Notes: generated from the letters alone by a model not told the origin. Numbered from the stretch's first letter, positions 2,822 through 60,143 are shown. The stretch: 64,000 bases of DNA from Escherichia coli (GCF_003991155.1 NZ_CP031295.1), one strand, 5' to 3'. Numbers and translations: made by a program.

Positions 2822-2955
2822 CTGGCCCTGAAGTTGTATATCAGCCGGCAATGCCGGCGGGCTTTCTGTATTCAAAATCTGCCTGTAAAACGAGTGCCCT
2901 GTGCGTGAAAAGGGATGGGCGGTAGCGTGTCAGAACATGTCGGGAGGAATATTCC

Positions 2956-3177
2956 GTGAGTGATGAAGCCGATGAAGCATATTCAGTGACAGAACAACTG
3001 ACCATGACAGGAATAAACCGGATACGCCAGAAAATAAATGCTCATGGTATTCCTGTTTATCTCTGTGAAGCATGCGGAAATCCTATTCCGGAAGCCCGGC
3101 GGAAAATATTTCCCGGTGTGACGTTGTGCGTTGAATGTCAGGCGTATCAGGAAAGACAGAGAAAACATTATGCATAA
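2956..3177 (+). CDS. traR: TraR, DksA-like zinc-finger protein
   Basis: 73 aa with CxxC...CxxC (CEACGNP...CVECQ) C4 zinc finger. Confidence 0.8.
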   Translation: MSDEADEAYSVTEQLTMTGINRIRQKINAHGIPVYLCEACGNPIPEARRKIFPGVTLCVECQAYQERQRKHYA

Positions 3178-3336
3178 GTCAGTCGCAGAACATAGTGATT
3201 TAATTCCGGATGAACATGAGTGGATATTCAGAAAACAGAAATCTTTGTATATGCGCCGGGAAATGGCGCGTTAATTACAGGTATTCCCTTCATGGCTACC
3301 GCATTTCTCGCTTTATTTTTCAACTAAGGAATTCAT

Positions 3337-5964: not shown

Positions 5965-6347
5965 GTTCAACGCAGAAACCCGCCGACGTCACGGCAGAAC
6001 AACGCATCCACTGGTGGTGGATGGTGCCGGGATGCCTGGCAATGGTGTTACTGAACGCAGCCGTCAGTTACGGCATTGTCAGACTGAACGCACCGGTGAC
6101 TGTCGCCTTCAACATGAAACAGACCGTGGATGCGTTTTTTGACAGCGCCAGTCAGAAACAACTGTCAGAAGCACAGTCAAAAGCCCTTTCAGCGCGTTTT
6201 AACACGGCACTGGAAGCCAGCCTGCAGGCGTGGCAGCAGAAACACCACGCGGTCATTCTGGTGTCGCCTGCTGTGGTACAGGGGGCACCGGATATCACCC
6301 GGGAAATCCAGCAGGATATTGCCCGGCGAATGAGGGCGGAACCATGA
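5961..6347 (+). CDS. trbI: TrbI
   Basis: 128-aa ORF with N-terminal TM helix, overlaps traC stop and traW start. Confidence 0.7.
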   Translation: MSSTQKPADVTAEQRIHWWWMVPGCLAMVLLNAAVSYGIVRLNAPVTVAFNMKQTVDAFFDSASQKQLSEAQSKALSARFNTALEASLQAWQQKHHAVILVSPAVVQGAPDITREIQQDIARRMRAEP

Positions 6348-6976
6348 GATGCCGGGGGCTGATTGCCCTGCTGATATGGGGGCAGAGTGTGGCCGCCGCC
6401 GATCTTGGTACCTGGGGCGATCTGTGGCCGGTAAAGGAGCCGGACATGCTGACGGTGATCATGCAGCGCCTGACGGCACTGGAGCAGTCCGGTGAGATGG
6501 GCCGGAAAATGGATGCCTTTAAGGAGCGGGTGATCCGCAACAGTCTGCGGCCCCCTGCCGTGCCCGGTATCGGACGCACGGAGAAATACGGCAGCCGGTT
6601 GTTTGACCCGTCCGTCAGACTGGCTGCGGATATCCGGGATAACGAAGGGCGGGTGTTTGCCCGTCAGGGTGAAGTGATGAATCCGCTGCAGTATGTTCCT
6701 TTTAACCAGACGCTGTATTTCATCAATGGCGATGATCCGGCGCAGGTGGCCTGGATGAAACGCCAGACGCCGCCCACACTGGAGAGCAAAATTATCCTCG
6801 TGCAGGGCAGTATCCCGGAGATGCAGAAAGCGCTGGACAGCCGTATTTACTTTGACCAGAACGGTGTGCTCTGCCAGCGCCTCGGCATTGATCAGGTCCC
6901 GGCACGGGTGAGCGCCGTTCCCGGCGATCGCTTCCTGAAGGTGGAATTTATTCCGGCAGAGGAGGGCAGAAAATGA
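6344..6976 (+). CDS. traW: TraW pilus assembly protein (internal ATG at 6344 used instead of the longer ORF start at 6230)
   Basis: MRCRGLIALLIWGQSVAA signal peptide; ATGA overlap with trbI stop. Confidence 0.8.
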   Translation: MRCRGLIALLIWGQSVAAADLGTWGDLWPVKEPDMLTVIMQRLTALEQSGEMGRKMDAFKERVIRNSLRPPAVPGIGRTEKYGSRLFDPSVRLAADIRDNEGRVFARQGEVMNPLQYVPFNQTLYFINGDDPAQVAWMKRQTPPTLESKIILVQGSIPEMQKALDSRIYFDQNGVLCQRLGIDQVPARVSAVPGDRFLKVEFIPAEEGRK

Positions 6977-7965
6977 AGCGAGGCCTGTGGCTGCTGATGT
7001 TCTTCCTTCTCGCCGGTCATGTCCCTGCGGCGTCTGCGGATTCTGCCTGTGAGGGGCGTTTTGTAAACCCGATCACGGATATCTGCTGGAGCTGTATTTT
7101 CCCGCTCTCGCTGGGCAGTATCAAAGTCAGTCAGGGTAAGGTCCCCGACACGGCGAACCCGTCGATGCCCATTCAGATTTGTCCGGCACCGCCGCCGCTG
7201 TTCAGGCGTATCGGGCTGGCCATTGGTTACTGGGAGCCGATGGCGCTGACGGACGTCACCCGGTCACCGGGATGCATGGTTAACCTGGGCTTCAGCCTGC
7301 CGGCTTTTGGTAAAACGGCACAGGGAACGGCGAAAAAGGATGAGAAGCAGGTGAACGGGGCGTTCTATCACGTTCACTGGTACAAATACCCGCTGACGTA
7401 CTGGCTGAACATCATCACATCGCTGGGCTGTCTGGAAGGTGGTGACCTGGATATCGCTTATCTTTCTGAAATTGACCCCACCTGGACGGACAGCAGCCTG
7501 ACCACCATTCTCAATCCGGAAGCTGTCATCTTTGCCAATCCGATAGCACAGGGGGCCTGTGCAGCAGATGCCATTGCCAGCGCCTTTAATATGCCTCTCG
7601 ATGTTCTGTTCTGGTGTGCCGGTTCGCAGGGCAGTATGTACCCGTTCAATGGCTGGGTGAGTAATGAGTCCAGTCCGTTGCAGTCCTCCCTGCTGGTCAG
7701 TGAACGCATGGCGTTCAAGCTGCACCGTCAGGGCATGATTATGGAAACCATCGGGAAAAATAACGCCGTCTGTAATGAATATCCGTCCCCAATCCTGCCC
7801 AAAGAACGCTGGCGTTACCAGATGGTGAATATGTATCCGGACAGCGGGCAGTGCCACCCGTTCGGGCGCAGCGTGACCCGCTGGGAAACCGGGAAAAATC
7901 CGCCCAACACAAAGAAAAACTTCGGCTACCTGATGTGGCGTAAACGTAACTGTGTCTTCCTGTGA
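6973..7965 (+). CDS. traU: TraU pilus assembly/DNA transfer protein
   Basis: 330-aa ORF with signal peptide, overlaps traW stop. Confidence 0.85.
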   Translation: MKRGLWLLMFFLLAGHVPAASADSACEGRFVNPITDICWSCIFPLSLGSIKVSQGKVPDTANPSMPIQICPAPPPLFRRIGLAIGYWEPMALTDVTRSPGCMVNLGFSLPAFGKTAQGTAKKDEKQVNGAFYHVHWYKYPLTYWLNIITSLGCLEGGDLDIAYLSEIDPTWTDSSLTTILNPEAVIFANPIAQGACAADAIASAFNMPLDVLFWCAGSQGSMYPFNGWVSNESSPLQSSLLVSERMAFKLHRQGMIMETIGKNNAVCNEYPSPILPKERWRYQMVNMYPDSGQCHPFGRSVTRWETGKNPPNTKKNFGYLMWRKRNCVFL

Positions 7966-7972
7966 GGTGAAT

Positions 7973-8606
7973 GATGAAGCTGAGTATGAAATCTCTGGCA
8001 GCACTGCTGATGATGCTGAACGGGGCGGTTATGGCGTCAGAAAACGTGAACACTCCTGAAAACCGCCAGTTCCTGAAGCAGCAGGAAAATTTAAGCAGAC
8101 AACTGCGTGAAAACCTGACCATCAGCTGAAAGCCGGGCGGAGAAGCAGGTGCTGGAAACCCCTTCAGCGTTCAGATAACCATTTCTGGATGAGCTGGTTC
8201 GTAAACAGCAGGCTTCGCAGGACGGGAAACCCGGCAGGGTGCTCTGTATTTTGTGTCGTTTTCCATTCCCGAAGAGGGGCTGAAACGAATGCTGGGCGAA
8301 ACCCGGCACTACGGTATACCCGCCACACTGCGGGGCATGGTGAACAATGACCTGAAGACCACCGCTGAAGCCGTGCTGTCCCTGGTGAAAGACGGCGCGA
8401 CTGATGGTGTTCAGATCGACCCGACGCTGTTTTCACAGTACGGCATTCGCAGTGTACCGGCACTGGTGGTGTTCTGCAGTCATGGATACGACATCATCCG
8501 GGGAAACCTGCGGGTCGGCCAGGCGCTGGAGAAAGTGGCCGCCACGGGTGACTGCCGGCAGGTGGCTCATGATTTACTGGCAGGGAAAGGAGATTCCGGG
8601 AAATGA
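7973..8606 (+). pseudogene. trbC: trbC, disrupted by several frameshifts (signal-peptide N-terminus 7973-8129 stops early; TrbC-like C-terminus in another frame 8253-8606)
   Basis: N-terminal MMKLSMKSLAALLMMLNGAVMA ORF ends after 52 codons; recognisable TrbC C-terminal sequence resumes in a different frame; indels sit at homopolymer runs. Confidence 0.6.
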
Positions 8607-10411
8607 AACGTATTTTACCTCTGATACTGGCTCTGGTTGCCGGCATGGCACAGGCTGACAGCAACAGTGATTACCGGGCCGGTTCTGATTTTGCTCACCA
8701 GATCAAAGGGCAGGGAAGCAGCAGTATTCAGGGCTTTAAGCCACAGGAGAGTATCCCCGGCTATAACGCGAATCCGGACGAGACAAAATATTACGGTGGC
8801 GTGACTGCCGGCGGGGATGGCGGCCTGAAAAATGACGGCACCACGGAATGGGCGACCGGTGAAACCGGAAAAACCATTACAGAGTCATTCATGAACAAGC
8901 CGAAAGACATTCTTTCACCGGATGCACCGTTTATCCAGACCGGCAGGGATGTGGTGAACCGGGCTGACAGCATTGTGGGAAACACCGGGCAGCAGTGCAG
9001 TGCGCAGGAGATTAGCAGGAGTGAATACACGAATTACACCTGTGAGCGGGATTTACAGGTGGAGCAGTACTGCACACGAACTGCCCGTATGGAGCTGCAG
9101 GGGAGTACCACATGGGAAACCCGGACGCTGGAGTATGAAATGAGTCAGCTACCTGCACGTGAAGTGAATGGTCAGTATGTTGTCTCCATTACCTCTCCCG
9201 TTACCGGTGAAATTGTCGATGCGCATTACAGCTGGAGTCGTACTTACTTGCAGAAGAGTGTACCTATGACAATTACAGTACTGGGAACCCCACTGAGCTG
9301 GAATGCCAAATACTCAGCAGATGCCTCATTTACACCAGTACAGAAAACACTGACTGCCGGTGTGGCTTTTACGTCATCTCACCCCGTCCGGGTCGGGAAT
9401 ACAAAATTCAAACGTCATACGGCAATGAAGCTGCGTCTGGTTGTCAGGGTAAAAAAAGCCTCGTACACCCCGTATGTTGTCTGGTCTGAAAGCTGCCCGT
9501 TCAGCAAGGAGCAGGGGAAACTGACAAAAACAGAATGTACGGAGGCTGGCGGGAACAGGACGCTGGTGAAAGACGGTCAGTCATACAGCATGTACCAGAG
9601 CTGCTGGGCATACCGGGACACGTATGTCACGCAGTCAGCAGACAAGGGAACCTGTCAGACCTACACCGACAATCCTGCCTGTACCCTGGTGTCACACCAG
9701 TGTGCCTTTTACTCCGAAGAAGGTGCCTGTCTGCATGAATATGCCACGTACTCCTGTGAGTCAAAAACATCCGGGAAAGTGATGGTCTGTGGGGGAGACG
9801 TATTCTGTCTCGATGGCGAATGCGATAAGGCTCAGAGCGGGCAGAGTAATGATTTTGCCGAAGCCGTTTCTCAGCTGGCGGCACTGGCCGCAGCAGGTAA
9901 GGATGTTGCGGCGCTGAACGGGGGGGATGTCCGTGCTTTCACCGGTCAGGCGAAATTTTGTAAGAAGGCTGCAGCCGGATACAGCAACTGCTGTAAGGAC
10001 AGCGGCTGGGGACAGGATATCGGGCTGGCCAAATGCAGCAGTGATGAAAAGGCCCTGGCTAAAGCAAAATCAAACAAACTGACCGTCAGCGTCGGGGAGT
10101 TCTGTTCGAAGAAAGTGCTGGGTGTCTGTCTGGAGAAAAAACGCAGCTACTGTCAGTTTGATTCGAAGCTGGCGCAGATAGTCCAGCAGCAGGGGCGCAA
10201 CGGTCAGTTGCGTATCAGTTTTGGTAGTGCGAAGCATCCTGACTGTCGGGGGATTACGGTTGATGAGCTGCAGAAAATTCAGTTCAACAGACTGGATTTC
10301 ACTAACTTCTACGAAGACCTGATGAATAACCAGAAAATCCCGGACAGTGGCGTTCTGACGCAGAAAGTGAAAGAGCAGATTGCTGACCAGCTGAAACAGG
10401 CAGGACAGTAA
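8603..10411 (+). CDS. traN: TraN mating-pair stabilisation outer-membrane protein
   Basis: 602-aa cysteine-rich secreted protein in F gene order. Confidence 0.85.
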   Translation: MKRILPLILALVAGMAQADSNSDYRAGSDFAHQIKGQGSSSIQGFKPQESIPGYNANPDETKYYGGVTAGGDGGLKNDGTTEWATGETGKTITESFMNKPKDILSPDAPFIQTGRDVVNRADSIVGNTGQQCSAQEISRSEYTNYTCERDLQVEQYCTRTARMELQGSTTWETRTLEYEMSQLPAREVNGQYVVSITSPVTGEIVDAHYSWSRTYLQKSVPMTITVLGTPLSWNAKYSADASFTPVQKTLTAGVAFTSSHPVRVGNTKFKRHTAMKLRLVVRVKKASYTPYVVWSESCPFSKEQGKLTKTECTEAGGNRTLVKDGQSYSMYQSCWAYRDTYVTQSADKGTCQTYTDNPACTLVSHQCAFYSEEGACLHEYATYSCESKTSGKVMVCGGDVFCLDGECDKAQSGQSNDFAEAVSQLAALAAAGKDVAALNGGDVRAFTGQAKFCKKAAAGYSNCCKDSGWGQDIGLAKCSSDEKALAKAKSNKLTVSVGEFCSKKVLGVCLEKKRSYCQFDSKLAQIVQQQGRNGQLRISFGSAKHPDCRGITVDELQKIQFNRLDFTNFYEDLMNNQKIPDSGVLTQKVKEQIADQLKQAGQ

Positions 10412-10434
10412 GGTATGGGAAATAACCGGGGGAA

Positions 10435-10695
10435 ATGATGAAAGTCATATTCACGTCGAACCGTTTTATTGATTTTCTTATCCGGCTTTTGATTACAGCG
10501 ATTGTCATTTCTCCGGTAATTATCTGGTCGTGGGATACGGTAAAAGAAACCACGGCAGACGGGATGCTTGCCGCTGCTTTCGTTATCCTTTACTCCGGTG
10601 TGCTCCTGTTTATTCTGTATTTTTGTTTTTCTGCCCTGACTGACCTGCAGAAACCTGATGAAAGAAAAAGTGATGAAAGGAATGAAGATGAATAA
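10435..10695 (+). CDS. trbE: TrbE
   Basis: 86-aa membrane ORF between traN and traF. Confidence 0.55.
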   Translation: MMKVIFTSNRFIDFLIRLLITAIVISPVIIWSWDTVKETTADGMLAAAFVILYSGVLLFILYFCFSALTDLQKPDERKSDERNEDE

Positions 10696-11431
10696 AGCAT
10701 TACTGCCACTGTTACTCTGCTGCTTTATTTTTCCGGCGTCAGGAAAAGATGCAGGCTGGCAGTGGTATAACGAGAAAATAAATCCGAAGGAAAAAGAAAA
10801 TAAACCTGTATCTGCAGCCCCCCGTCAGGAACCGGATATTATGCAGAAACTGGCCGCACTGCAGACGGCAACAAAGCGGGCGCTGTACGAAGCCATTCTG
10901 TATCCCGGCGTGGATAATTTTGTGAAATATTTCCGGCTGCAAAATTACTGGACTCAGCAGGCCGGGCTTTTCACCATGAGCGCCAGAAAGGCCATGCTGG
11001 CACATCCTGAACTGGACTATAACCTGCAGTACAGCCATTACAACGGCACGGTACGGAACCAGCTGGCAGCAGACCAGGCGCAGCAGCGACAGGCCATTGC
11101 GAAACTGGCTGAACACTACGGCATCATGTTTTTTTACCGGGGGCAGGACCCCATCGACGGGCAACTGGCGCAGGTCATTAATGGCTTCCGGGATACGTAT
11201 GGTCTGAGTGTTATTCCCGTTTCCGTGGATGGCGTGATTAATCCGCTGTTGCCGGATTCCCGGACTGACCAGGGGCAGGCGCAGCGCCTCGGCGTGAAAT
11301 ATTTCCCGGCCATGATGCTGGTTGACCCGAAACAGGGCAGTATTCGCCCGTTATCATACGGCTTTATTTCGCAGGACGACCTGGCAAAACAGTTCCTGAA
11401 CGTTTCTGAAGATTTTAAACCCAATTTTTAA
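10688..11431 (+). CDS. traF: TraF pilus assembly protein (thioredoxin-like fold, no CxxC)
   Basis: 247 aa from MNKALLPLLLCCFIFPASG signal peptide; overlaps trbE stop. Confidence 0.8.
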   Translation: MNKALLPLLLCCFIFPASGKDAGWQWYNEKINPKEKENKPVSAAPRQEPDIMQKLAALQTATKRALYEAILYPGVDNFVKYFRLQNYWTQQAGLFTMSARKAMLAHPELDYNLQYSHYNGTVRNQLAADQAQQRQAIAKLAEHYGIMFFYRGQDPIDGQLAQVINGFRDTYGLSVIPVSVDGVINPLLPDSRTDQGQAQRLGVKYFPAMMLVDPKQGSIRPLSYGFISQDDLAKQFLNVSEDFKPNF

Positions 11432-11446
11432 TCGCGGATTTGATTT

Positions 11447-11815
11447 ATGAGTGAAGATTATTTGAAAATGTTTACAGGTGTTGTTCTGTTAATATTTGTC
11501 ATTATTGCCGGTTATTTCTTTTCTGAGCGTAATGACAGGAAAATGTTTCTCCTGAGCTCACTGGTTTTCCTTGTTATTAATATCGCGTGTTTATATGTGC
11601 TTACCGCCAGTCTCTGGTTTCTGTGTGGTGCAATTATGAGTCAGGGCGCAGCACTGGTTGTTTCAATAGTTGCGGCCGCATTACCGGACGTTACGAGCTT
11701 CGACAGGTTCAGAAGAATATTTATCTGTATTGTGTTGTCATCGGTATGGTCCGGAGTGATGTGGTTTTTTATAAGGGGGGCTTATGACAGGCTAAGTCAT
11801 ATAAAACGGTCATAA
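11447..11815 (+). CDS. trbA: TrbA membrane protein
   Basis: 122-aa hydrophobic ORF in F position. Confidence 0.55.
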   Translation: MSEDYLKMFTGVVLLIFVIIAGYFFSERNDRKMFLLSSLVFLVINIACLYVLTASLWFLCGAIMSQGAALVVSIVAAALPDVTSFDRFRRIFICIVLSSVWSGVMWFFIRGAYDRLSHIKRS

Positions 11816-12111
11816 AAACCATACAAAATAATGAGGTTGATTACTGAAGACCATATGATAAACCATACCGCAATCCAGTGGCTTCTGAATAGCTCACAAA
11901 AATAAATATAGATAATTGAAAATAACCATAATACAACGATGCCTGCTGCGATACTTAATAAACTTATTACAAGATAGTCAGGGAAGGCATTGACCGGTAA
12001 TGAATGTGATGCTGCATATATCAGCGCAATAATTGCCGCATTTCCCGGTAACGACTCTCTTATTATGTTTCTGATTATTTCCAGTTTTTCTTTAAAAGAT
12101 CGCTTTTCCAT
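11797..12111 (-). CDS. artA: ArtA, antisense-strand ORF in tra operon
   Basis: 104-aa hydrophobic ORF on minus strand between trbA and traQ, as in F. Confidence 0.45.
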   Translation of the reverse strand: MEKRSFKEKLEIIRNIIRESLPGNAAIIALIYAASHSLPVNAFPDYLVISLLSIAAGIVVLWLFSIIYIYFCELFRSHWIAVWFIIWSSVINLIILYGFYDRFI

Positions 12112-12191
12112 TTGTACCTCTGATTAATATCACACAAACGCGAATATTACAGACATGAATACTCTCATGTAAATAATAACCGGAGTTTAAC

Positions 12192-12476
12192 ATGATAAGT
12201 AAACGCAGATTCTCTTTACCCCGGCTTGATATTACGGGAATGTGGGTATTTTCCCTGGGTGTCTGGTTTCATATCGTCGCCCGTCTTGTTTACAGCAAAC
12301 CCTGGATGGCTTTTTTTCTGGCGGAGCTGATTGCGGCCATTCTCGTACTGTTCGGCGCATACCAGGTGCTGGATGCATGGATTGCCCGTGTCAGCCGGGA
12401 AGAGCGTGAGGCACTGGAAGCCAGGCAACAGGCCATGATGGAAGGGCAGCAGGAGGGCGGACATGTCTCTCACTAA
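12192..12476 (+). CDS. traQ: TraQ pilin chaperone
   Basis: 94-aa ORF with TM helix, position. Confidence 0.7.
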   Translation: MISKRRFSLPRLDITGMWVFSLGVWFHIVARLVYSKPWMAFFLAELIAAILVLFGAYQVLDAWIARVSREEREALEARQQAMMEGQQEGGHVSH

Positions 12477-13008
12477 ATCACTGCTGTTCACCCTGTTGCT
12501 GAGCGCCGCTGCTGTGCAGGCCTCCACCCGGGATGAAATAGAGCGACTCTGGAATCCGCAGGGTATGGCTACGCAGCCTGCACAACCGGCAGCAGGCACG
12601 TCAGCCAGGACAGCAAAGCCGGCTCCCCGCTGGTTCCGCCTCAGTAATGGCAGGCAGGTTAACCTGGCCGACTGGAAGGTGGTGCTGTTTATGCAGGGGC
12701 ATTGCCCTTACTGTCACCAGTTTGACCCGGTACTGAAACAGCTGGCACAGCAGTACGGCTTTTCCGTTTTTTCCTACACCCTGGATGGTCAGGGGGATAC
12801 GGCCTTTCCTGAAGCATTACCGGTGCCACCGGAGGTGATGCAGACCTTCTTCCCGAATATCCCGGTGGCCACACCGACCACCTTCCTGGTCAACGTCAAC
12901 ACGCTTGAGGCATTACCGCTTTTACAGGGGGCAACGGATGCCGCCGGTTTTATGGCGCGGGTGGATACCGTTTTGCAGATGTACGGAGGAAAAAAAGGTG
13001 CGAAATAA
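12463..13008 (+). CDS. trbB: TrbB periplasmic thioredoxin-like disulfide isomerase
   Basis: 181 aa, signal peptide, CPYC active-site motif. Confidence 0.8.
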   Translation: MSLTKSLLFTLLLSAAAVQASTRDEIERLWNPQGMATQPAQPAAGTSARTAKPAPRWFRLSNGRQVNLADWKVVLFMQGHCPYCHQFDPVLKQLAQQYGFSVFSYTLDGQGDTAFPEALPVPPEVMQTFFPNIPVATPTTFLVNVNTLEALPLLQGATDAAGFMARVDTVLQMYGGKKGAK

Positions 13009-13279
13009 GCAGGTGGTGTTACTCATTGCCGGAATATCCGGCATCGTGACGGGAATAATCGTCAGCCTGAATATCCCCTTTATCCGTCAGGGGCTTTTTT
13101 ATCCCGCCAGCCCTGTAGAAATTGTCGTTTCGCTGAGTCTTACCTTTTCTGTTTCTGTTGTGTTTTTTGTGGGGGCAATTGTGGGATGGATTTCGGTGTC
13201 TGAAATATATTACAGCCGCATGACCGGTCTGAATGAATCATCGGAAATATCAGAGGGAACTTATAATGAGAGAAAATAA
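12998..13279 (+). CDS. trbJ: TrbJ (GTG start overlapping trbB stop)
   Basis: 93 codons from GTG at 12998 in frame with ORF 12905-13279; membrane protein; synteny. Confidence 0.45.
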   Translation: MRNKQVVLLIAGISGIVTGIIVSLNIPFIRQGLFYPASPVEIVVSLSLTFSVSVVFFVGAIVGWISVSEIYYSRMTGLNESSEISEGTYNERK

Positions 13280-13646
13280 AAGTAATCCTGAGCTCAAAAT
13301 CAGAAGTACAGAACGAGATTATAAATACATTTCCAGAATTACTGGCAGGTATGCTGGGTTGTCTCTGGTATTCCTGACTGCCGGAATTGTTTTATGGACA
13401 GTTATGGATATTATTTTTGATGCCTGTATTGATTCGTGGAAAGCGGACCCGGAATTAAATAATTCGAGTTATATGTGGAATATCCTGATATATGCCATTC
13501 CGTATGCGTTATATGCGCTTGCAGCCGGGTTTCTTGTTACATTTTTTTCTGTCCCCAATGTACGAATTAATATACGGAAATATCGAGATATTCCTGCTGA
13601 AATGTCGTATGCACCGGGAGAACACATTAAGGGAGGGCAAGAATGA
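13266..13646 (+). CDS. trbF: TrbF
   Basis: 126 codons from MRENK start, two TM helices, overlaps traH start. Confidence 0.5.
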   Translation: MRENKSNPELKIRSTERDYKYISRITGRYAGLSLVFLTAGIVLWTVMDIIFDACIDSWKADPELNNSSYMWNILIYAIPYALYALAAGFLVTFFSVPNVRINIRKYRDIPAEMSYAPGEHIKGGQE

Positions 13647-15019
13647 TGCCACGCATTAAACCTCTTCTGGTTCTTTGTGCCGCCTTACTGACGGTGACGC
13701 CTGCAGCGTCAGCGGATGTGAACAGCGACATGAATCAGTTCTTTAATAAGCTGGGATTTGCTTCCAATACCACACAGCCGGGCGTCTGGCAGGGGCAGGC
13801 CGCCGGCTATGCTTACGGTGGCTCCCTGTATGCCCGTACTCAGGTCAAAAATGTTCAGCTAATTTCCATGACGCTGCCGGATATCAATGCTGGATGTGGC
13901 GGCATCGACGCCTATCTCGGCTCGTTCAGTTTTATTAATGGTGAGCAGTTGCAGCGTTTTGTTAAGCAGATTATGAGCAATGCTGCCGGTTACTTTTTTG
14001 ACCTTGCCCTGCAGACAACGGTGCCGGAAATAAAAACCGCAAAAGACTTCGTGCAGAAAATGGCAAGCGACATTAACAGTATGAACCTCAGTTCCTGCCA
14101 GGCTGCACAGGGGATTATCGGCGGGCTTTTCCCCCGGACGCAGGTGTCCCAGCAAAAAGTCTGTCAGGACATTGCCGGTGAGAGCAATATTTTTGCTGAC
14201 TGGGCGGCTTCCCGGCAGGGATGTACCGTTGGCGGGAAATCTGACAGTGTCAGGGATAAAGCCAGCGACAAGGATAAGGAGCGGGTGACCAAAAACATCA
14301 ACATCATGTGGAATGCGCTTTCCAAAAACAGAATGTTTGACGGCAACAAAGAGCTGAAAGAATTTGTGATGACGCTGACCGGCTCACTGGTGTTTGGTCC
14401 CAACGGCGAAATCACACCGCTGTCAGCCAGAACCACTGACCGCTCAATTATCCGGGCCATGATGGAAGGCGGCACAGCAAAAATTTATCACTGCAACGAT
14501 TCTGATAAATGCCTGAAAGTGGTGGCAGACACACCGGTGACTATCAGCCGGGATAATGCACTGAAGTCTCAGATTACTAAACTTCTGGCCAGCATTCAGA
14601 ACAAGGCGGTCAGTGACACGCCTCTGGATGACAAGGAAAAAGGCTTTATTTCCAGTACCACCATCCCCGTCTTCAAATACCTGGTTGACCCGCAGATGCT
14701 CGGAGTTTCCAACAGCATGATTTACCAGCTGACGGACTATATCGGTTACGACATCCTGCTGCAGTACATTCAGGAGCTGATACAGCAGGCCCGGGCGATG
14801 GTGGCCACGGGAAATTATGACGAAGCGGTTATCGGACATATTAACGACAACATGAATGATGCCACCCGGCAGATTGCGGCGTTTCAGTCACAGGTGCAGG
14901 TACAGCAGGATGCGCTGCTGGTTGTCGATCGTCAGATGAGCTACATGCGTCAGCAGCTTTCCGCCCGCATGCTCAGTCGTTACCAAAACAACTATCACTT
15001 CGGAGGGAGCACGCGGTGA
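13643..15019 (+). CDS. traH: TraH pilus assembly protein
   Basis: 458-aa secreted protein, synteny. Confidence 0.85.
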   Translation: MMPRIKPLLVLCAALLTVTPAASADVNSDMNQFFNKLGFASNTTQPGVWQGQAAGYAYGGSLYARTQVKNVQLISMTLPDINAGCGGIDAYLGSFSFINGEQLQRFVKQIMSNAAGYFFDLALQTTVPEIKTAKDFVQKMASDINSMNLSSCQAAQGIIGGLFPRTQVSQQKVCQDIAGESNIFADWAASRQGCTVGGKSDSVRDKASDKDKERVTKNINIMWNALSKNRMFDGNKELKEFVMTLTGSLVFGPNGEITPLSARTTDRSIIRAMMEGGTAKIYHCNDSDKCLKVVADTPVTISRDNALKSQITKLLASIQNKAVSDTPLDDKEKGFISSTTIPVFKYLVDPQMLGVSNSMIYQLTDYIGYDILLQYIQELIQQARAMVATGNYDEAVIGHINDNMNDATRQIAAFQSQVQVQQDALLVVDRQMSYMRQQLSARMLSRYQNNYHFGGSTR

Positions 15020-50525: not shown

Positions 50526-51992
50526 TCATTCGGGATGCCTGGAGGCCAGATCCATCACTCGTGTTAACCCGGACGGACGATCAATGCCCAATTTAGTTAA
50601 AATATTCGAGATATAATTATGAGCATCAAGTTCAACTCTGATATCCCTTGCTGCTTCGATTATTTCTAAATATTCGCCACCCAATCCGTCCAGTGGGACA
50701 TTTGTAATAAGATAATGAATGTATTGTTCAGGCTTAACCCCATTTGGGAGATTAAATTGTTTTACTTTTCCTTCCGCTGCCGCTTTTAACTCATAAGTTC
50801 GTGATTCTGTGCCGGTGAAAACTTTATCACGAGCAGTTTTCTTTTCATTTTCTGTGGAATATTTATCGCCATCAAGAATATAAAGTTTACCAGATAGATT
50901 GTCACCACGAATAAGGGTACTGGCAAGTAGAGTGAATGCGTTTGAAGCTGCGCCAAATTTAAATATTTTTACATATTTGCTGGCCTTAAGTGAAGAACAT
51001 ATTTTATTTATTATGGCAACAGCTAAGTCATCTTCTACATATATTTCAATAGGCGTCGTTGATTCACCTGTTAATCTGTTTATAGCATCAGGTTTTGTTT
51101 CTTCAAATGAATAACTACGGCCTTGAATGTTTACGACGTGTCTTATATTTATCTTGTCTGATAAAGTGGTTATCATTTCTCTATGGGTAGTAAAGATGAT
51201 TTGTTTGTTTTTATCTTTGGCATGAGATGATATGACTTCTATTAACTTTTTCAATGCTTCGTCATGCAACAATAAATCTAATTCATCAATTAATATTAAG
51301 GCGTTCTTGTCCGCTTTCAATATTGTTTCCAGAATTAAAAATATCTTTTGCTCTCCTGCGCTCATACTCAATGATGAGTAGGCCAGTCCCCCTGACTCAA
51401 CTCCAATCAATATTTTTCCATTGGGTTGTTGATGCTGATTGAAACTTGTGTATGGTTTATTAAGTATATAGGAGGCGTAATGAAGAATGTTTGTTATTAA
51501 ATCATTACTGACACTGCTGGTTTCATACTGAATATTATTCTTTTTTTCTGATTCTATTATAGGAACACATTTATCAATGCCAAGATAGTAAACTTCTCTT
51601 AAAGGACGACGAGCATAAATCTGAATCCATCGTGAGCCTCGAATATCTGCTTTTCCATAATTTTTCAATTCATTTTCAATCATTACCCCATCTTTACGAT
51701 AAGTTAAATTTACAATGAAGTCACTGCCGTTCCATTCAGCATGTGGGCTGCGTGGAAAAAAATGCATTAACCGATGGTCTTCACCGGGGAAACCTTCTTC
51801 AGGCATGTATATGCTTGCTATAGCATGGAGTATTGTTGATTTTCCGCTTCCATTTGGACCTAAAATTGCGGTTAACGCATGAGGTTTAAAAATAATCTCG
51901 TTTAATCCATTTATACATTTTAGTTTGTTAATTTTAATGGAGTTCAAGACTTGACCAGTAATGGTTTTTTTATTTTTTTCTGCCATTTTCAA
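50526..51992 (-). CDS. ABC-type ATPase fused to TOPRIM/DUF4435-like domain (OLD-family or fused PARIS-like candidate)
   Basis: Walker A GPNGSGKST, signature-like LSMSAGEQK, Walker B LILIDELDLLLHDE, H-loop TTH; C-terminal VEDD ... LYILDGDK consistent with TOPRIM E and DxD. Confidence 0.6.
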   Translation of the reverse strand: MKMAEKNKKTITGQVLNSIKINKLKCINGLNEIIFKPHALTAILGPNGSGKSTILHAIASIYMPEEGFPGEDHRLMHFFPRSPHAEWNGSDFIVNLTYRKDGVMIENELKNYGKADIRGSRWIQIYARRPLREVYYLGIDKCVPIIESEKKNNIQYETSSVSNDLITNILHYASYILNKPYTSFNQHQQPNGKILIGVESGGLAYSSLSMSAGEQKIFLILETILKADKNALILIDELDLLLHDEALKKLIEVISSHAKDKNKQIIFTTHREMITTLSDKINIRHVVNIQGRSYSFEETKPDAINRLTGESTTPIEIYVEDDLAVAIINKICSSLKASKYVKIFKFGAASNAFTLLASTLIRGDNLSGKLYILDGDKYSTENEKKTARDKVFTGTESRTYELKAAAEGKVKQFNLPNGVKPEQYIHYLITNVPLDGLGGEYLEIIEAARDIRVELDAHNYISNILTKLGIDRPSGLTRVMDLASRHPE

Positions 51993-53096: not shown

Positions 53097-53449
53097 CCTG
53101 CACGCTCCATCTGATAATGTACTGACAGGTAAAAATAATATCCTGCATGATTTGTGTGCTCATGATTTCTGATAATATCAGATATTGTTTTATCATCAAT
53201 GATGAAAACCATATCTGATATGATTTTATATATATTTCTTAATTATCATATCATTTGCGTCTTTTCTGCCGCGCAGATCCAGTTTCCGGCTAAGTCGGAT
53301 CGACCTAATCTTTGTTTCTGATATGAACACCTCGGAGAGGTGTAAGCAATGGTATAAACGAAATGTATTATGTATCTGCATCACAGCATGCGGGCACATT
53401 TTGCGGAAGGATATGAATCCCCCCGGAATAACTGGCAAAGGACAGATAA

Positions 53450-55588
53450 ATGGACATTGAAATACGCCACTGCAATAACATCGTACGAGCACATATCACC
53501 CTCACTGCCGATAAACTGAACATTAAGTTTGCGCCAAATGGTACTGGAAAAAGTACGCTGTCACGGGCCATAAGCTGTGCGGCGCGGGACGACATTCAGG
53601 GACTACAGGCACTGATGCCCTTCCGGCTGCGCGGAGAAAACCCCGATAGCACCGGGCCCATTGTCATCGGTGCTGACGGGATTGGGGACGTGATGTGCTT
53701 CAACGAGGAGTACGTCAGTCAGTTTACGTTCCAACCGGACGAGCTCATCAGTGATAGCTTTAATATTCTTATCCGCAATCAAGCCCATGCGGAAAGAGAG
53801 CGTGAAATAGAAGAAATGACGCAAAAGATCCGGGCTGTTTTCACGGATCACACTGAGCTGAACTCTCTGATAGACCATCTACAGGAACTCAGTAATGCTT
53901 TCAGATCAACCAGTTCCGGGATTTCACGTTCTTCAACCGGCATGAGAGGTCTGTCAGGCGGAAATAAAATACACCACATTCCGGCTGGTCTTGAGAACTA
54001 TCAACCCTACATCCGCAGTGAACGCCGCGTGGAATGGATTGACTGGCAGACAAAGGGACTCGAGTTTTCGCCCCTTTCGGATGGCTGCTGTCCGTTCTGT
54101 ACCGGTGATATCACGGGAAAGGAAGCACAAATTCGCCAAGTCAGAGAGGAATACGATAAATCCACCATTAAAAACCTGACCGCTATCATCAGACTGGTGG
54201 AAAACCTCGGTAATTACCTGACGGAGAGCGCCAGAGAACGCCTTCTGGCCATTACTATGCTTCAGAACGGTCCGGAAGCCGAACATATCGAGTACCTAGT
54301 GGCGTTGAAACGCCAGACCGATACGCTGACAGAGAAACTCACTGCGCTGAGAGGCCTGAATGTTTTCAGCCTGCAGGAACAGCAGAACGTTCGGGAGGTG
54401 CTCACTGCCAGGTTGATTGACCTGCAGTTCTTCCCTGATCTGCAATCCGAACTCATGCAGGGGATCACCGACAGACTGAACGCGGCCCTTATGGACCTGA
54501 TAAACCTTGCCGGACCGCTGCAGGGAAAAATTAACCGGCACCGGGACAGCATGATCCGGCTGATCGCACAGCACAAAACAAACATCAATAATTTCCTCAC
54601 TTATGCAGGCTATAAATACAGGGTGGATATAGCCGGCGAGGGAGAGCAGAGAAAACTCAGGCTACGACACATAGATTTTGACGGGTACGTCAGCGGCGGT
54701 AGCCAGCATCTCAGCTATGGAGAACGGAACGCCTTTGCGATTGTGTTATTCATGTATGAATGCCTGTCAAAAAACCCGGGACTGATTATCCTTGATGATC
54801 CCATATCTTCTTTTGATAAAAACAAGAAGTTTGCCATTCTTGAAATGCTGTTCAGACGTGCAAGTGGTGAATGCCTGAAGAACCGGACTGTACTTATGCT
54901 GACGCATGACGTGGAGCCTGTGATTGACACGCTGAAGTCAGTCAGAAGGTTGTTCAGTAATCAGGTGACCGCCTCCTGCCTGCGCCTGTCTGCTGGAGTC
55001 ATAGAAGAATTACCTGTTAACGACGGCGATATCATGACATTCATGCAGATCTGCAAATCCATCACCGCGTCAGCAGACTGTGAGGAGATCATTAAGCTCA
55101 TCTATCTTCGTCGCTACTTTGAAATCGTTGACGAACGTGGTGATGCTTATCAGCTTCTATCCAATCTATTCCATCGACGCGTCGTCCCGCTGGATTATCG
55201 CGAGCCTGCCGCTGCGGGCTCGGGCTATCCCAAAATGGCTCCTGAGAAAATTCAGCAGGCCTTGCGGGATATCCGGGAGTATGTGGACAGTTTTGATTAC
55301 CCGCGACTTCAGGCTCTCGTCAGCAGCCCAGATGAAATAAAAAACCTGTACCGTCGCTGTCGTAACGGCTATGAAAAACTGCAGGTATTCCGTTTACTGG
55401 AACTGGATCAGGACCATCCGGTAATACGAAAATTCGTTAACGAAACGTACCACATTGAAAATGAGTTCATCTGTCAACTAGATCCGTCCAGATTCGATCT
55501 CATCCCGGAGTACGTGATTATGGAATGTGACAAGCTCATCGCCCTGCCACCGGCAGCAAACCAGAGCTCGGTTGCCCGTATCGCTTGA
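53450..55588 (+). CDS. Rad50/SMC-like ABC ATPase with CxxC hook and C-terminal extension (RloC/PrrC-like anticodon-nuclease candidate)
   Basis: Walker A APNGTGKST at N-terminus, CCPFC ~200 aa in, signature LSYGERNAF, Walker B LIILDDP, H-loop LMLTHD ~430-480, then ~230 aa C-terminal region. Confidence 0.5.
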   Translation: MDIEIRHCNNIVRAHITLTADKLNIKFAPNGTGKSTLSRAISCAARDDIQGLQALMPFRLRGENPDSTGPIVIGADGIGDVMCFNEEYVSQFTFQPDELISDSFNILIRNQAHAEREREIEEMTQKIRAVFTDHTELNSLIDHLQELSNAFRSTSSGISRSSTGMRGLSGGNKIHHIPAGLENYQPYIRSERRVEWIDWQTKGLEFSPLSDGCCPFCTGDITGKEAQIRQVREEYDKSTIKNLTAIIRLVENLGNYLTESARERLLAITMLQNGPEAEHIEYLVALKRQTDTLTEKLTALRGLNVFSLQEQQNVREVLTARLIDLQFFPDLQSELMQGITDRLNAALMDLINLAGPLQGKINRHRDSMIRLIAQHKTNINNFLTYAGYKYRVDIAGEGEQRKLRLRHIDFDGYVSGGSQHLSYGERNAFAIVLFMYECLSKNPGLIILDDPISSFDKNKKFAILEMLFRRASGECLKNRTVLMLTHDVEPVIDTLKSVRRLFSNQVTASCLRLSAGVIEELPVNDGDIMTFMQICKSITASADCEEIIKLIYLRRYFEIVDERGDAYQLLSNLFHRRVVPLDYREPAAAGSGYPKMAPEKIQQALRDIREYVDSFDYPRLQALVSSPDEIKNLYRRCRNGYEKLQVFRLLELDQDHPVIRKFVNETYHIENEFICQLDPSRFDLIPEYVIMECDKLIALPPAANQSSVARIA

Positions 55589-55749: not shown

Positions 55750-56166
55750 TTACTTCACCCAGTCTTCCAGCACCAGGTCAGGCACTCGCTCAAATTCTCT
55801 TGTATTATTCGTTACCAGTATCGCCCCGGCGGCGATGGCGTGCCCGGCAATCGCCGTGTCGTTCGGGCCGATCGGCGTCCCGGCCAGCCGCAGTGCCACT
55901 TTAATCTTCGTGGTGGCGTCTACTGCGGCGCGATCCCAGGGCAGGATGGCATCGAGGCGGGCGCAGAATTCATCGACCAGTTGGACGTGACGTGGTGAGG
56001 CCTTTGGGCCGGTAGCCCCGAAGCGCATTTCAGAGTAGGTGATGGCCGAGACCACTATACGGTGGCCGCGTAGCACCGCCTGCTCCAGACGCTTCAGGAC
56101 GGCTTCTGGCTGTTCACGCATGATGAACGAGCAGATACAGGTATCAAGCATATAAGTCTTGTTCAC
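55750..56166 (-). CDS. vapC: VapC/VagD PIN-domain toxin
   Basis: 138 aa MNKTYMLDTCICSFIMREQ...; overlaps antitoxin gene. Confidence 0.85.
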   Translation of the reverse strand: MNKTYMLDTCICSFIMREQPEAVLKRLEQAVLRGHRIVVSAITYSEMRFGATGPKASPRHVQLVDEFCARLDAILPWDRAAVDATTKIKVALRLAGTPIGPNDTAIAGHAIAAGAILVTNNTREFERVPDLVLEDWVK

Positions 56167-56393
56167 AGGTTAAATCGCCCTTCGTCGCTGACAACATCCT
56201 CGCGCTCCGCCATAAAATCTGGATCGGCTTTTTCGTACTCTAGGAATGATCCCCAGGTTGGCCGGACGGGGCGCAGGATGATGCTGTCCCCTTCCCGGAC
56301 GATCTCGAGCTCGCTCACCCCCTCAAAATCCAGATCACGAGGCAGACGGATGGCGCGGTTGTTGCCATTTTTGAATATCGATACGGTTCTCAT
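56163..56393 (-). CDS. vapB: VapB/VagC antitoxin
   Basis: 76-aa ORF upstream of PIN toxin with 4-nt overlap. Confidence 0.8.
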   Translation of the reverse strand: MRTVSIFKNGNNRAIRLPRDLDFEGVSELEIVREGDSIILRPVRPTWGSFLEYEKADPDFMAEREDVVSDEGRFNL

Positions 56394-56688: not shown

Positions 56689-56979
56689 ATGAGCGTCAAA
56701 ATCACAGGTTTAGACAAAATGCAGAAACAGCTAAAAGAGGTTGAGAGAGCAACAGAGGCATTAAACGGAAGTTATGATGTCCACTTCGATGCTAACGATC
56801 CTGTCAGCATTGAGAACGCGATTCAGGAAGCCTATTCCATGGTGTACGAACGCGCTTCTGGTTATGCCACTAATCCGATGGTCAGCCCATTAATCGAACA
56901 CATGAAAGAAAATCTGCGCCAACAGATTCTGGACAGAGCAGAACAACAAAGACAGGAGAGCGGGCAGGATGGCAATTGA
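56689..56979 (+). CDS. Hypothetical small protein (96 aa), first gene of operon with TIR-like protein
   Basis: ORF with 11-nt overlap onto downstream gene start; no recognised motif. Confidence 0.35.
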   Translation: MSVKITGLDKMQKQLKEVERATEALNGSYDVHFDANDPVSIENAIQEAYSMVYERASGYATNPMVSPLIEHMKENLRQQILDRAEQQRQESGQDGN

Positions 56980-57868
56980 TATCTTTCAGTCACTTAAAAA
57001 TTGCGTATTCGACCTTCAGCGCGCTGACGTTCAGAACTATCAGCAACCTCTTAAGCAATTGGCCCGGCTCTTGAACTCAGAGAATCTGCAGTCAGTTAAT
57101 GCACATCTGACCCGCAATGTTGAACTTGATACCTTTCTGGCCAGGAGTGAAGATACTGAATCCAGCATGGCTGGTTCCGCTGTTCTACAGTGGCCTGATG
57201 AGCCCGCTGATATTTTGGGCCTGAAGTTGCTGCTGATCGAGAAAATGGCAGACGATAACAATTTTTCCTTTAATTTCTGTCATACATTTTTCTATGATCG
57301 AAACATTATTGAATCCATTCGAAAATTCACGTCGTCATTAGTTGCCCCGTTCGTGCGCGATTACCAGTTGTATGTGGAAAACCAACACGATCCTGAGCCT
57401 GCAGTGTTTCGGCCGGTTTCCCGAAAAATTTTTATTGTTCATGGCCATGATAATGATGCCCTTCAGTCTGTTGCCCGTTTTATATCCCGGATAGGTCTTG
57501 AGGAAATCATTCTTTCAGAACGTCCTGACGGCTCCAGGACGATTATCGAGAAATTTGAAGCAGAGTCAGGGGATGTCAGTTTTGCCATCGTGCTGATGAC
57601 GCCCGACGATAGCGGCAGTGCTCTGGCATCTGAAAGCACACGTCTCCGCGCACGCCAGAATGTCCTGTATGAGCTCGGATATTTCGCCGGGAAGCTTGGA
57701 CGCGGGAAAGTACTTGTACTCAGGAAGGGAGATATCGAAATCCCTTCAGATCTTGCCGGGGTTCTCTATACCGAGCTTGATGAGCATGGTGGATGGAAAC
57801 GCAAACTGCTGAGTGAGCTTGCGTATGCCGGTGTTCCTTTTGACAAGGATAAAGCATTAAGCGCCTGA
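56969..57868 (+). CDS. Protein with C-terminal TIR-like nucleotide-binding domain
   Basis: C-terminal ~140 aa with KIFIVHGHD ... FAIVLMTPDD ... NVLYELGYFAGKLGRGKV pattern resembling bacterial TIR-like domains; N-terminal ~150 aa unrecognised; RBS aggagag upstream. Confidence 0.5.
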   Translation: MAIDIFQSLKNCVFDLQRADVQNYQQPLKQLARLLNSENLQSVNAHLTRNVELDTFLARSEDTESSMAGSAVLQWPDEPADILGLKLLLIEKMADDNNFSFNFCHTFFYDRNIIESIRKFTSSLVAPFVRDYQLYVENQHDPEPAVFRPVSRKIFIVHGHDNDALQSVARFISRIGLEEIILSERPDGSRTIIEKFEAESGDVSFAIVLMTPDDSGSALASESTRLRARQNVLYELGYFAGKLGRGKVLVLRKGDIEIPSDLAGVLYTELDEHGGWKRKLLSELAYAGVPFDKDKALSA

Positions 57869-57917: not shown

Positions 57918-60143
57918 TCAGTCGTCATTTTCCAGCGCTGTTTTGAGCGCTTCCTGCTCCGGAGTCAGCTCGTTGCCGGACAGCATAACCTTCAACTTCT
58001 CTTCGACTGCTGGCCAGTCATCAAAGAACGGACTGACCTGGTCACGCGCAATCCGGCGATATGCCCCTCGGTGGGAGCTGAAGACACTGGTCTGTAATCG
58101 TATCAACAGGTTAACAAGGCCTTCATCAGTGGTAGTAACTTCTCTGACCCATTGCTTCACGGTTTCACCTGAACTCATGTCTCTCCAGGCGTAGAGATAC
58201 CCGAGAAGAGACTTGCGCAGGAGAAGCTGTTGCTGAAGTTCTGGTTGATTCATACGTTCCGCAAACCTGTCACGCAACCGTTCCGTAATATCGCGACTGA
58301 AAAGAGCGTCTGAAGGCGAAGGTACTGCATTCTGAGCAAGTCCATGTTCCCAGATAAGATCCCGCATAAAATCGGCTATCCAGAACGGCGAAGCACCCGT
58401 AACGATCAGTTTTTCCATAAGCGTGATCGTTCTGGTCTCATCAATATCCTGCATATGCTTCAGCAGATGCCGTACAACCTCATTAATGGCCATTTCACGC
58501 AGGGAAAACCATGGGTTACGGATACTGAAGCGAGTGCTCACCTCATCGGTGTGATCGAAGAAAAAATGAACCAGTCCTGCGCACTCTTCGAAATTACGTT
58601 CTCTTATCAGGCCTGGAGTCAGTCTGCTCAGTATATGTTCAAACCAGGTTCCGGACAGACTGCCCACACTGTTGATTTTTGAGAGCAGCAATTCAGAAAG
58701 CTGCTGCTGTTTTTCCGATACGCCAGCCTGTTCAAAAAGCTGTCTGAAGAATTCAGGTGGCAGAACATTCTGTGGTGAGGAGAAGGCAAAATAATATCGC
58801 CAGTGCGTCAGGCTGCTGAGTCGTTTACCGGTCGTCTGGATATGACGAAAATCCTCACTGACGGGCTCAAAAAGATTCAGATATTCATCATTATGTCCAC
58901 TGATACCTGGGATCCAGTCTGCAAGTGTCAGAAACGAGTCTGCATTTGATGCCCTGAACGTCTTCATACATCTGATAAGCCCCTCCCGGAAGTCTGCTTT
59001 CTCTCCGTCAGAAAGCATACCCTGACCGGTTTCAATCACGGACCGTTCTGTCAGGTAATGCTCTGTCCAGTCATACAGAGCCGGGTTTGTCACCCGTATA
59101 AGCTGAAGCAGGCACAAATCAGGGAAATAAACAAAATCCCGCATCCCCGGATAAAGAAAAATCAGGGAATTAATGGCCTGATGGATTTCCCGTGGCGTCG
59201 AAAGTGCGGCACCATAGGTATCAGTCACCGCGATGAGATCCCTTACCATTCCAGAGTCTGGCGGTTGATTATTAATTTGCTGATATAGAGCCTCAGCCCG
59301 CTGGCGAAATTCATTACGTAAATCAAAGGCTTCAGGTCGGGGTAATTTAAAACTAAGCTGAATGATTTTCTGGAGATAACGGCTGCCATCTTCGATATTC
59401 AGCGCATGTTCAACGGCATGAGTGATAATCTGCCTGTCATAACAGAGAATATGGGTAAAGCGGGGCAGATCGGCTACTGCACGCACAAGCCTGAACACTT
59501 CCGCCACCTGGGATGGCTCCAGTCGGTCCAGATCATCCATGACAACAATGAACTTCAGATCCAGACTCACCAGTTGTCCTGCAATTTCAGCCCGAAGCTT
59601 TGTCGTGGTTTTCTGATCAACAGCCAGACGGCTGTCTGAAAATACCTTTATTCCGCCTGCTATCCAGTTAATAATGCTGGAAAACTGTCCGATATATTGA
59701 ACCAGTGGAAGGACGCGCGATGAAGTATCCTGAGCATACTCAATCACTTTTTGAGCTTCCGGTGACAACAGATATTTACGCCAGAGCTTTTTGAAGCCCT
59801 TCGGGGGATAGCGTATTTCCATTTCCTGCTGGATAACCGTGGCAACCGGAAGAAAGAGCGCTTCAACCGGACTGCCGCCACTCAGCCAGGGAGAAATATG
59901 CAGCACATGCGTGTGAGCATCTTTTTTCAGGGCAAGGTTTCTCAGGATCAGATTAAGGAGGCTTGTTTTACCCGATCCCCATGCACCTTCTATTCCGACA
60001 ACATTTGAAGCCTCCAGAGGAAGAGTAAGGATGGAACGGGATATATTTTCTGCGATATTACCGAAACCGTATCGATCCTCAGGTACATCTTCAACTGCCG
60101 CATCAAGCCCTTTCTGGTTCCACAGCTGCCTCAGTATCTTCAT
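57918..60143 (-). CDS. KAP-family P-loop NTPase
   Basis: 741 aa; Walker A GIEGAWGSGKTSLLNLI, Walker B FIVVMDDLDRLEP, large helical C-terminal region. Confidence 0.7.
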   Translation of the reverse strand: MKILRQLWNQKGLDAAVEDVPEDRYGFGNIAENISRSILTLPLEASNVVGIEGAWGSGKTSLLNLILRNLALKKDAHTHVLHISPWLSGGSPVEALFLPVATVIQQEMEIRYPPKGFKKLWRKYLLSPEAQKVIEYAQDTSSRVLPLVQYIGQFSSIINWIAGGIKVFSDSRLAVDQKTTTKLRAEIAGQLVSLDLKFIVVMDDLDRLEPSQVAEVFRLVRAVADLPRFTHILCYDRQIITHAVEHALNIEDGSRYLQKIIQLSFKLPRPEAFDLRNEFRQRAEALYQQINNQPPDSGMVRDLIAVTDTYGAALSTPREIHQAINSLIFLYPGMRDFVYFPDLCLLQLIRVTNPALYDWTEHYLTERSVIETGQGMLSDGEKADFREGLIRCMKTFRASNADSFLTLADWIPGISGHNDEYLNLFEPVSEDFRHIQTTGKRLSSLTHWRYYFAFSSPQNVLPPEFFRQLFEQAGVSEKQQQLSELLLSKINSVGSLSGTWFEHILSRLTPGLIRERNFEECAGLVHFFFDHTDEVSTRFSIRNPWFSLREMAINEVVRHLLKHMQDIDETRTITLMEKLIVTGASPFWIADFMRDLIWEHGLAQNAVPSPSDALFSRDITERLRDRFAERMNQPELQQQLLLRKSLLGYLYAWRDMSSGETVKQWVREVTTTDEGLVNLLIRLQTSVFSSHRGAYRRIARDQVSPFFDDWPAVEEKLKVMLSGNELTPEQEALKTALENDD

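Follow-up and report, generated by a model that had tools for sequence, protein, structure and literature searches.

What manner of protein is encoded by the gene at positions 53450-55588 of the Escherichia coli DNA analysed here (GCF_003991155.1, NZ_CP031295.1; one strand of 64,000 nucleotides, hereafter the window), and what might it do for the plasmid that carries it? An initial annotation had proposed a Rad50-like ABC ATPase with a CxxC hook and a C-terminal extension, perhaps an anticodon nuclease of the RloC or PrrC type. In this work, we find an RloC-type sensor chassis whose effector has diverged or been replaced, RloC itself being a suicide enzyme that cuts tRNA; only the sensor half places the protein in the RloC superfamily, and the protein is neither a transporter, nor a Rad50 orthologue, nor PrrC. 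As to function, we lean, with slightly better than even confidence, towards a single-protein sensor-effector of the RloC type that most likely acts against phages, through abortive infection, for the plasmid's host. Since the family is already catalogued as a candidate in PADLOC, it is not categorically new, and our literature search found no functional study of this gene, nor an anti-phage test of PDC-S06, the PADLOC category to which it is assigned.

The reading frame itself is borne out. It begins with ATG, is preceded by an AAGGA Shine-Dalgarno sequence approximately 9 nt 5' of the start, and remains open for 712 codons, while a word-indexed search returned more than 3600 homologues, nearly all of about 700 aa. 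Given this number of homologues and the invariance of their motifs, the open reading frame (ORF) is not a chance one, and the gene is real and under selection. Walker A (A28-PNGT-G33-K34-S35-T36), the CPFC hook (residues 214-217, within CCPFC at 213-217), the ABC signature LSYGE (421-425), the Walker B/D-loop segment LIILDDPISSFD (445-456, with D449-D450 and the D-loop D456) and the H-loop LTH (484-486, with H486) were all found where the initial annotation had placed them; a Q-loop, YVSQ, occupies residues 88-91, including Q91, and some 225 residues follow the H-loop. In an alignment of 72 family members of 28-53% identity, upon which all conservation counts given here are based, K34, C214, S422, E425, D449, D450 and H486 are invariant, and the hook residues C214, P215 and C217 are present in 72/72, 71/72 and 71/72 members, respectively.

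The reference for RloC was the protein of E. coli APEC O1, listed by Davidov and Kaufmann (2008; Table S1) as the orthologue YP_852004, of 738 aa, with phage replication and capsid genes flanking it. This protein is WP_000423308.1, which we found in a P2-like prophage hotspot of APEC O1, between a replication endonuclease and a portal gene (NC_008563.1, 925932-928148; 15932-18148 on the minus strand of locus L004), and which shows the published features: the hook LDWVKKGKEHYLDGSTCPFCQ and the triad MR646NILE650 ... x39 ... RYINRGSH690. Its PGAP annotation reads 'AAA family ATPase' only, and PADLOC calls it PDC-S06, not RloC. When the 72-member alignment was compared with this RloC by hhalign, the N lobe of the head gave 96% and the C lobe 98.7%, while the hook region (192-251 of our protein, 233-308 of RloC) gave 93% at E=3.5e-7, with W-x2-W/V-x2-G...CPFC aligned. 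As both head lobes and the hook align in this manner, the sensor half is RloC-like by homology, beyond resemblance. AAA_13, which is the RloC/CR006 family, was also the sole family accepted in Pfam, covering both ABC lobes and nothing past residue 489, and a fold search with the full-length AlphaFold model (pLDDT, the predicted score in the local distance difference test, 77) led to the heads of SMC, Rad50 and RecN. Neighbours in the AlphaFold database (AFDB) were family members throughout, labelled 'CR006 P-loop domain-containing protein'. A PAS-fold Pfam match at residues 67-123 (independent E-value 0.002) was set aside, as it falls within the N lobe of the ABC head and is supported by no second method.

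As in RloC, the ABC motifs are split by an insert, with Walker A N-terminal and the others distal, and the insert is largely helical and carries the CxxC hook, zinc binding itself being predicted. The 280-residue insert (105-385) is mostly helical in the AlphaFold model, and heptad periodicity of the family-averaged hydrophobicity is strongest at 109-173 and 332-388, the segments by which the chain departs from the head and returns to it, which match model helices 111-150 and 334-385. The arm tip (approximately 151-333) is a conserved helical module with W196, W199 and CPxC, its hook loop being modelled at low confidence. As modelled, then, this is a short arm, and no simple coiled coil of Rad50 length. 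Within the insert, C214 and C217 alone among potential metal ligands are conserved, H176 being replaced by Asn in the majority of members; a pair of ligands from each chain agrees with a zinc site to which two chains contribute, the arrangement known from Rad50 and proposed for RloC. The Rad50-like ATPase with an RloC-like hook thus stands, on the Pfam, fold and hhalign results together, with helical insert, heptads and CPFC all in evidence; what requires revision is the coiled coil, which becomes a short arm tipped by a module.

The C-terminal domain is less easily placed. Compared with PDB sequences, Pfam and NCBIfam, residues 524-712 gave no match, and a PADLOC search at E up to 10 matched only the family's own model; as such, no domain of known function was recognized there, non-nuclease domains included. 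A search with this domain by itself returned 432 representative clusters (E<=0.001), in which every full-length protein was of about 700 aa and of the same architecture. Modelled alone from 50 diverse sequences, the domain is all-alpha, with about nine helices (pLDDT 93.2; predicted template modelling score, pTM, 0.88). Its most conserved residues are R554 (72/72), R555, E558, S571, K643, R648, K661, E665, H668 (72/72), E670, N671, Q676, P686 and C693, a pattern which suggests an active site. A His-Me (HNH) finger around H668 was considered and rejected, because the model has no beta hairpin there.

The leading interpretation of this domain, which we do not put forward as a finding and which we hold with confidence somewhat short of even, is that of a divergent HEPN-like RNase. 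The conserved residues LR554RYFE558 ... K661FVNETYH668IE ... QLDPSRF are collinear with MR646NILE650 ... R683YINRGSH690SD ... DIDPDKY of RloC; in a profile scan with the RloC His-motif window, residues 659-670 ranked first of 178 windows (z=4.9), and a gapped profile alignment gave the same register. Several results weigh against this interpretation. Comparison of the domain with the RloC/PrrC nuclease domain by hhalign gave 0.2-5%, and three variants from which a putative 70-residue insertion was removed still gave 1-5%; 26 of 300 column permutations reached the observed gapped-alignment score (p ~0.09), and the R-x3-E window was not ranked first in the profile scan. The catalytic triad of RloC is Arg-X3-Glu-X36-52-His (Davidov and Kaufmann 2008). 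Here R554-x3-E558 is conserved and is followed by E558-x109-H668, the alternative H575 (x16) being Lys in 21/72 members, and in place of the HEPN pattern R-x4-6-H there is K661-x6-H668, with Lys in 70/72 members and Arg in 1/72. With profile methods giving no match to the PrrC/RloC nuclease domain and with the triad spacing outside the published range, the anticodon nuclease of the initial annotation is not shown: the relation to RloC holds for head and hook and fails for the nuclease half, and the likeness to PrrC goes no further than the ABC motifs.

It is reasonable to postulate a mechanism along the following lines. From what is known of RloC, Rad50 and the ABC family, two subunits would pair through their heads in an ATP-dependent manner, each head bearing a short coiled-coil arm, and a two-cysteine zinc hook would join the arms and keep the effector silent. 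A trigger, which by analogy with RloC might be DNA ends or disturbed or lost restriction, would drive the ATPase cycle and free the C-terminal domain. As judged from residue conservation, this effector would most likely be a HEPN-like RNase that needs no metal, and possibly a tRNase; it would have diverged from the nuclease domain of RloC/PrrC past profile detection and have taken up some 70 residues by insertion. Two H668 loops might make a composite site upon head engagement, and the expected outcome would be translation arrest and abortive infection. We infer the defence phenotype, and with it dimerization, zinc binding, the trigger and nuclease activity; the motifs, the kinship of head and hook with RloC, the constant architecture, the defence-island and RM contexts and the lack of a match for the C-terminal domain are shown.

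The genomic contexts of relatives bear on whether such a system would act alone. Nine contexts were informative, namely the window and the loci of eight relatives on contigs of at least 10 kb (two loci were uninformative), and in three of the nine a restriction-modification (RM) locus contains or adjoins the relative. In a Kiritimatiellia metagenome-assembled genome (L007), a type I RM locus reads hsdM, Bro-N, hsdS, DUF2188, the family gene, SLFN/AlbA_2, an uncharacterised ORF and hsdR; a second locus (L008) has the same upstream order and is cut off ahead of hsdR. Elsewhere the family gene overlaps the end of a methylase and ResIII-helicase operon, with an integrase thereafter (L011), or comes after a methylase and a pair of unknown genes, PemK being close by (L017), and further relatives adjoin nSTAND3, TIR_2, or HEPN_AbiU2 and ParE/Phd. 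This occasional embedding in RM loci, together with location in defence islands, is the pattern reported for RloC. It may also be observed that, at 2517-13724 of the L007 locus, three genes (Bro-N, the ATPase of the family and SLFN/AlbA_2) are embedded between hsdM and hsdR, and that downstream there is an Mrr-like nuclease as well as a KAP NTPase, giving a dense, nested defence locus.

Across the nine informative contexts, no neighbour was conserved as an antitoxin or partner, which argues for a single-gene system and against the most durable of the alternatives, in which the C-terminal domain is non-enzymatic and serves as a sensor or adaptor for a phage or host factor, or for a separate effector, as in Lamassu LmuB and the ABC-3C ATPases. 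Such a role would account for the want of a recognisable nuclease fold or family in this domain; many defence ABC ATPases use separate effectors, and one of 50 members weakly matches the ABC-3C C-terminal domain CTD12 (E=0.02). Set against this, the R, H, E, K, N and Q residues that stay invariant at 28% overall identity form a pattern more typical of an active site than of a binding surface, and we regard the alternative as unlikely.

A second alternative, that the protein is a true RloC orthologue with the same anticodon nuclease, excising the wobble nucleotide of tRNA in the ATP- and DNA-activated cleavage of the anticodon loop that characterises RloC, draws upon the shared domain order, the homologous head and hook, the R-x3-E and invariant His in the same order, the His-motif match and the common PADLOC label. 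That label has to be read with care. PDC-S06 denotes 13 hidden Markov models (HMMs; PDLC04886-04898), and the PDCs are defence candidates recognised by their embedding in RM, BREX or DISARM loci. Our protein matches PDLC04889 over its full length (E=4.8e-286), its residues 1-698 aligning with positions 1-688 of the 693 in the profile. As APEC O1 RloC is also called PDC-S06, and seven of the models match canonical RloC full length, PDC-S06 is essentially the RloC superfamily. Similarly, phrog_2801 matches APEC O1 RloC end to end (E=0) and our protein with 350 bits, and appears to merge the two subfamilies. It aligns residues 534-683 with profile columns 607-706; since members of our subfamily have evidently gone into the profile, this alignment is no independent evidence. 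An annotation by PADLOC, with one name over separate HMMs, or by phrog_2801 would consequently conceal the difference in the C-terminal domain. A true RloC, by comparison, matches the PADLOC PrrC model across its nuclease domain (residues 490-730) as well as the seven PDC-S06 models, whereas that PrrC model reaches only residues 421-473 of our protein, short of the C-terminal domain, and PDLC04889 is the sole PDC-S06 model to match its C-terminal domain. The triad spacing described above, whether reckoned to H668 or to H575, likewise departs from x36-52, and in JGI a canonical RloC fragment is named 'wobble nucleotide-excising tRNase' whereas members of this family are named ABC transporter subunits. 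We consider orthology in this full sense to be quite improbable.

There is, in our estimation, only a slight chance that the protein's role is in DNA transactions of the plasmid or chromosome (repair of an SMC/Rad50/RecN-like kind, partition or the exclusion of competing DNA) and not in phage defence. The SMC/Rad50/RecN-like head, the zinc hook and carriage mostly on conjugative plasmids are what such a role would lead one to expect, but no Mre11/SbcD or kleisin-type partner is found and the arm is far shorter than that of Rad50. The gene belongs to the variable, accessory part of the plasmid, outside the backbone, beside defence genes (and, in relatives, within RM loci), and its phyletic spread is patchy. 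Homologues occur in Enterobacteria, Alphaproteobacteria, Desulfobulbaceae, Kiritimatiellia, Cyanobacteria and Nitrosomonas, with identity still at about 55%, a cross-phylum distribution that suggests horizontal transfer. Last, the ATP-binding subunit of an ABC or ECF transporter, to which source names such as 'cobalt transporter ATP-binding subunit' and 'EcfA2' and weak NCBIfam transporter matches would point, may be dismissed as already refuted, for those matches span residues 405-490 only, at 20-32 bits where the curated cut-offs stand at 190-700 bits, the head is split by the 280-residue hook-bearing insert, and in none of the contexts is there an adjacent permease gene.

Table 1. Coordinates of the gene, its parts and the adjoining intergenic region within the window.
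Feature	Residues	Position (nt)	Strand	Basis or remark
Whole gene	712 aa + stop	53450-55588	+	WP_000350638.1 of plasmid R64
N-terminal ABC head lobe	1-104	53450-53761	+	Walker A K34, Q-loop Q91; hhalign with RloC; SMC/Rad50 fold
Helical insert	105-385	53762-54604	+	AlphaFold helices; heptads; hhalign with RloC hook; PADLOC PDLC04886 stretch 197-296
Hook C214-P-F-C217	214-217	54089-54100	+	Within the insert, in an apical module with W196 and W199
C-terminal ABC head lobe	386-523	54605-55018	+	Signature, Walker B, D-loop, H-loop; beta hairpin 506-522
C-terminal all-alpha domain (putative effector)	524-712	55019-55585	+	Conserved-residue set; domain model
Divergent intergenic region		53097-53449	.	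Shared with the ydfA-ydeA-ibfA operon; promoter-like sites and TCTGATA(A/T) repeats

With the single-protein, RloC-type reading thus retained, its setting may be described. WP_000350638.1, annotated as 'AAA family ATPase' on the IncI1 plasmid R64, has the same sequence (100% identity), and the gene name in R64 is probably ydfB; the window is distinct from R64, sharing with it 99.3% identity over 12.9 kb, and the best matches to the window are pO83_CORR-like E. coli plasmids. The gene was found in 724 of 5426 complete E. coli genomes (~13%), at 762 places of which 749 are plasmid-borne, and on 786 PLSDB plasmids of Escherichia, Salmonella and Klebsiella that are mostly conjugative; the Salmonella and Klebsiella carriers number in the hundreds and are for the most part conjugative resistance or virulence plasmids. 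A phage collection yielded no match to the gene by either DNA or tblastn search. Incomplete copies are common: a Klebsiella allele (P0008, 544 aa, 896 member sequences) is without residues 1-172 and hence without Walker A, about a quarter of the matching E. coli records span less than 80% of the gene, and fragments are numerous among the AFDB entries. Such frequent truncation is as might be expected of a potentially toxic gene, or of breakage by IS26.

A neighbouring RM system, for which the initial annotation had proposed to look, is not found next to the gene in the window. The gene instead stands in a defence island, between the divergent ydfA-ydeA-ibfA operon (described in PMC12111858) and vapBC, a TIR-like gene and pifA. 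IbfA, which is HEC-04 in PADLOC, is an ABC-TOPRIM protein with a published abortive-infection phenotype. The ibfA of the window (50526-51986, minus strand) has a premature stop, encoding 486 aa as opposed to 518 aa in R64 and losing the last 32 residues after '...DLASRHPE', and so, IbfA being a characterised abortive-infection protein, this allele may be impaired. The intergenic region between the operon and our gene contains five TCTGATA(A/T) copies, including the palindrome TCTGATAATATCAGA at 53168-53182, and a 20-nt inverted repeat (53172-53191 / 53205-53224). The region is probably regulatory, and the arrangement resembles a row of operators under a shared regulator, for which YdeA, winged-helix-like by eye, is a candidate. 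Directly downstream, on the opposite strand, is a vapC/vapB type II toxin-antitoxin pair (55750-56393, minus strand), and between it and pifA a 96-aa ORF overlaps a 299-aa ORF (56689-57868, plus strand). The latter is TIR-like and a defence candidate, matching PADLOC PDC-S35 at E=2e-65 and TIR effector models at E ~1e-12. PifA (57918-60143, minus strand), the T7 exclusion protein, has a KAP P-loop NTPase domain and a full-length PADLOC match (E=2.9e-290).

The gene thus stands beside two genes, ibfA and pifA, that have been shown to block phages. If it is itself an active defence, it would be a widespread factor, overlooked so far, in setting the host range of phages among clinical and veterinary Enterobacteriaceae, with a bearing on phage therapy and typing. 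A distinct, unrecognised C-terminal domain and a very high prevalence on enterobacterial plasmids make it a worthwhile and easily tested target, and the family offers a natural domain-swap test of whether the zinc-hook ATPase is a portable switch over different effectors. To our knowledge, protection against phage by RloC in a natural setting has never been demonstrated, and a tractable relative on an E. coli plasmid would be useful for that reason.

Four known systems invite comparison. IbfA, HEC-04 and the OLD-type ABC-TOPRIM proteins likewise combine an ABC sensor and a C-terminal effector in one polypeptide, and IbfA is also plasmid-borne, but their effector is a TOPRIM nuclease, they have no zinc hook and they belong to another ABC subfamily. 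Rad50, SbcC and T4 gp46 share the SMC-type head and a CPxC zinc hook on an arm between the head lobes; their arm, a very long antiparallel coiled coil of 500-900 residues, compares with about 280 residues here, Rad50 has no fused C-terminal domain, and no Mre11/SbcD metallophosphoesterase partner is adjacent to our gene in the window or in the loci of relatives. PrrC has DDP-type ABC motifs and a fused C-terminal effector and is the classic case of embedding in a type I RM locus, an arrangement copied by one relative of our gene (L007); PrrC is, however, compact (~400 aa) and without a coiled-coil or hook insert, as opposed to 712 aa with a 280-residue insert, and the copy in the window is not set within an hsdM-hsdS-prrC-hsdR order. 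RloC differs in that no homology to its nuclease domain is detectable in the C-terminal 190 residues of our protein, where the triad spacing is x109 against x36-52 and Lys replaces the Arg of R-x6-H; our protein is moreover about 25-90 residues shorter, with a shorter insert. For the rest, RloC, as known from Geobacillus kaustophilus and APEC O1, is the nearest counterpart: a single chain of about 700-800 aa with an N-terminal Walker A and a distal signature, DDP-x-SS-x-D and H-loop, a helical insert with a CPFC hook after W-x2-[WV]-x2-G, an all-helical domain at the C-terminus bearing R-x3-E and a His that is invariant, occasional embedding in RM loci, and a place in both PDC-S06 and phrog_2801.
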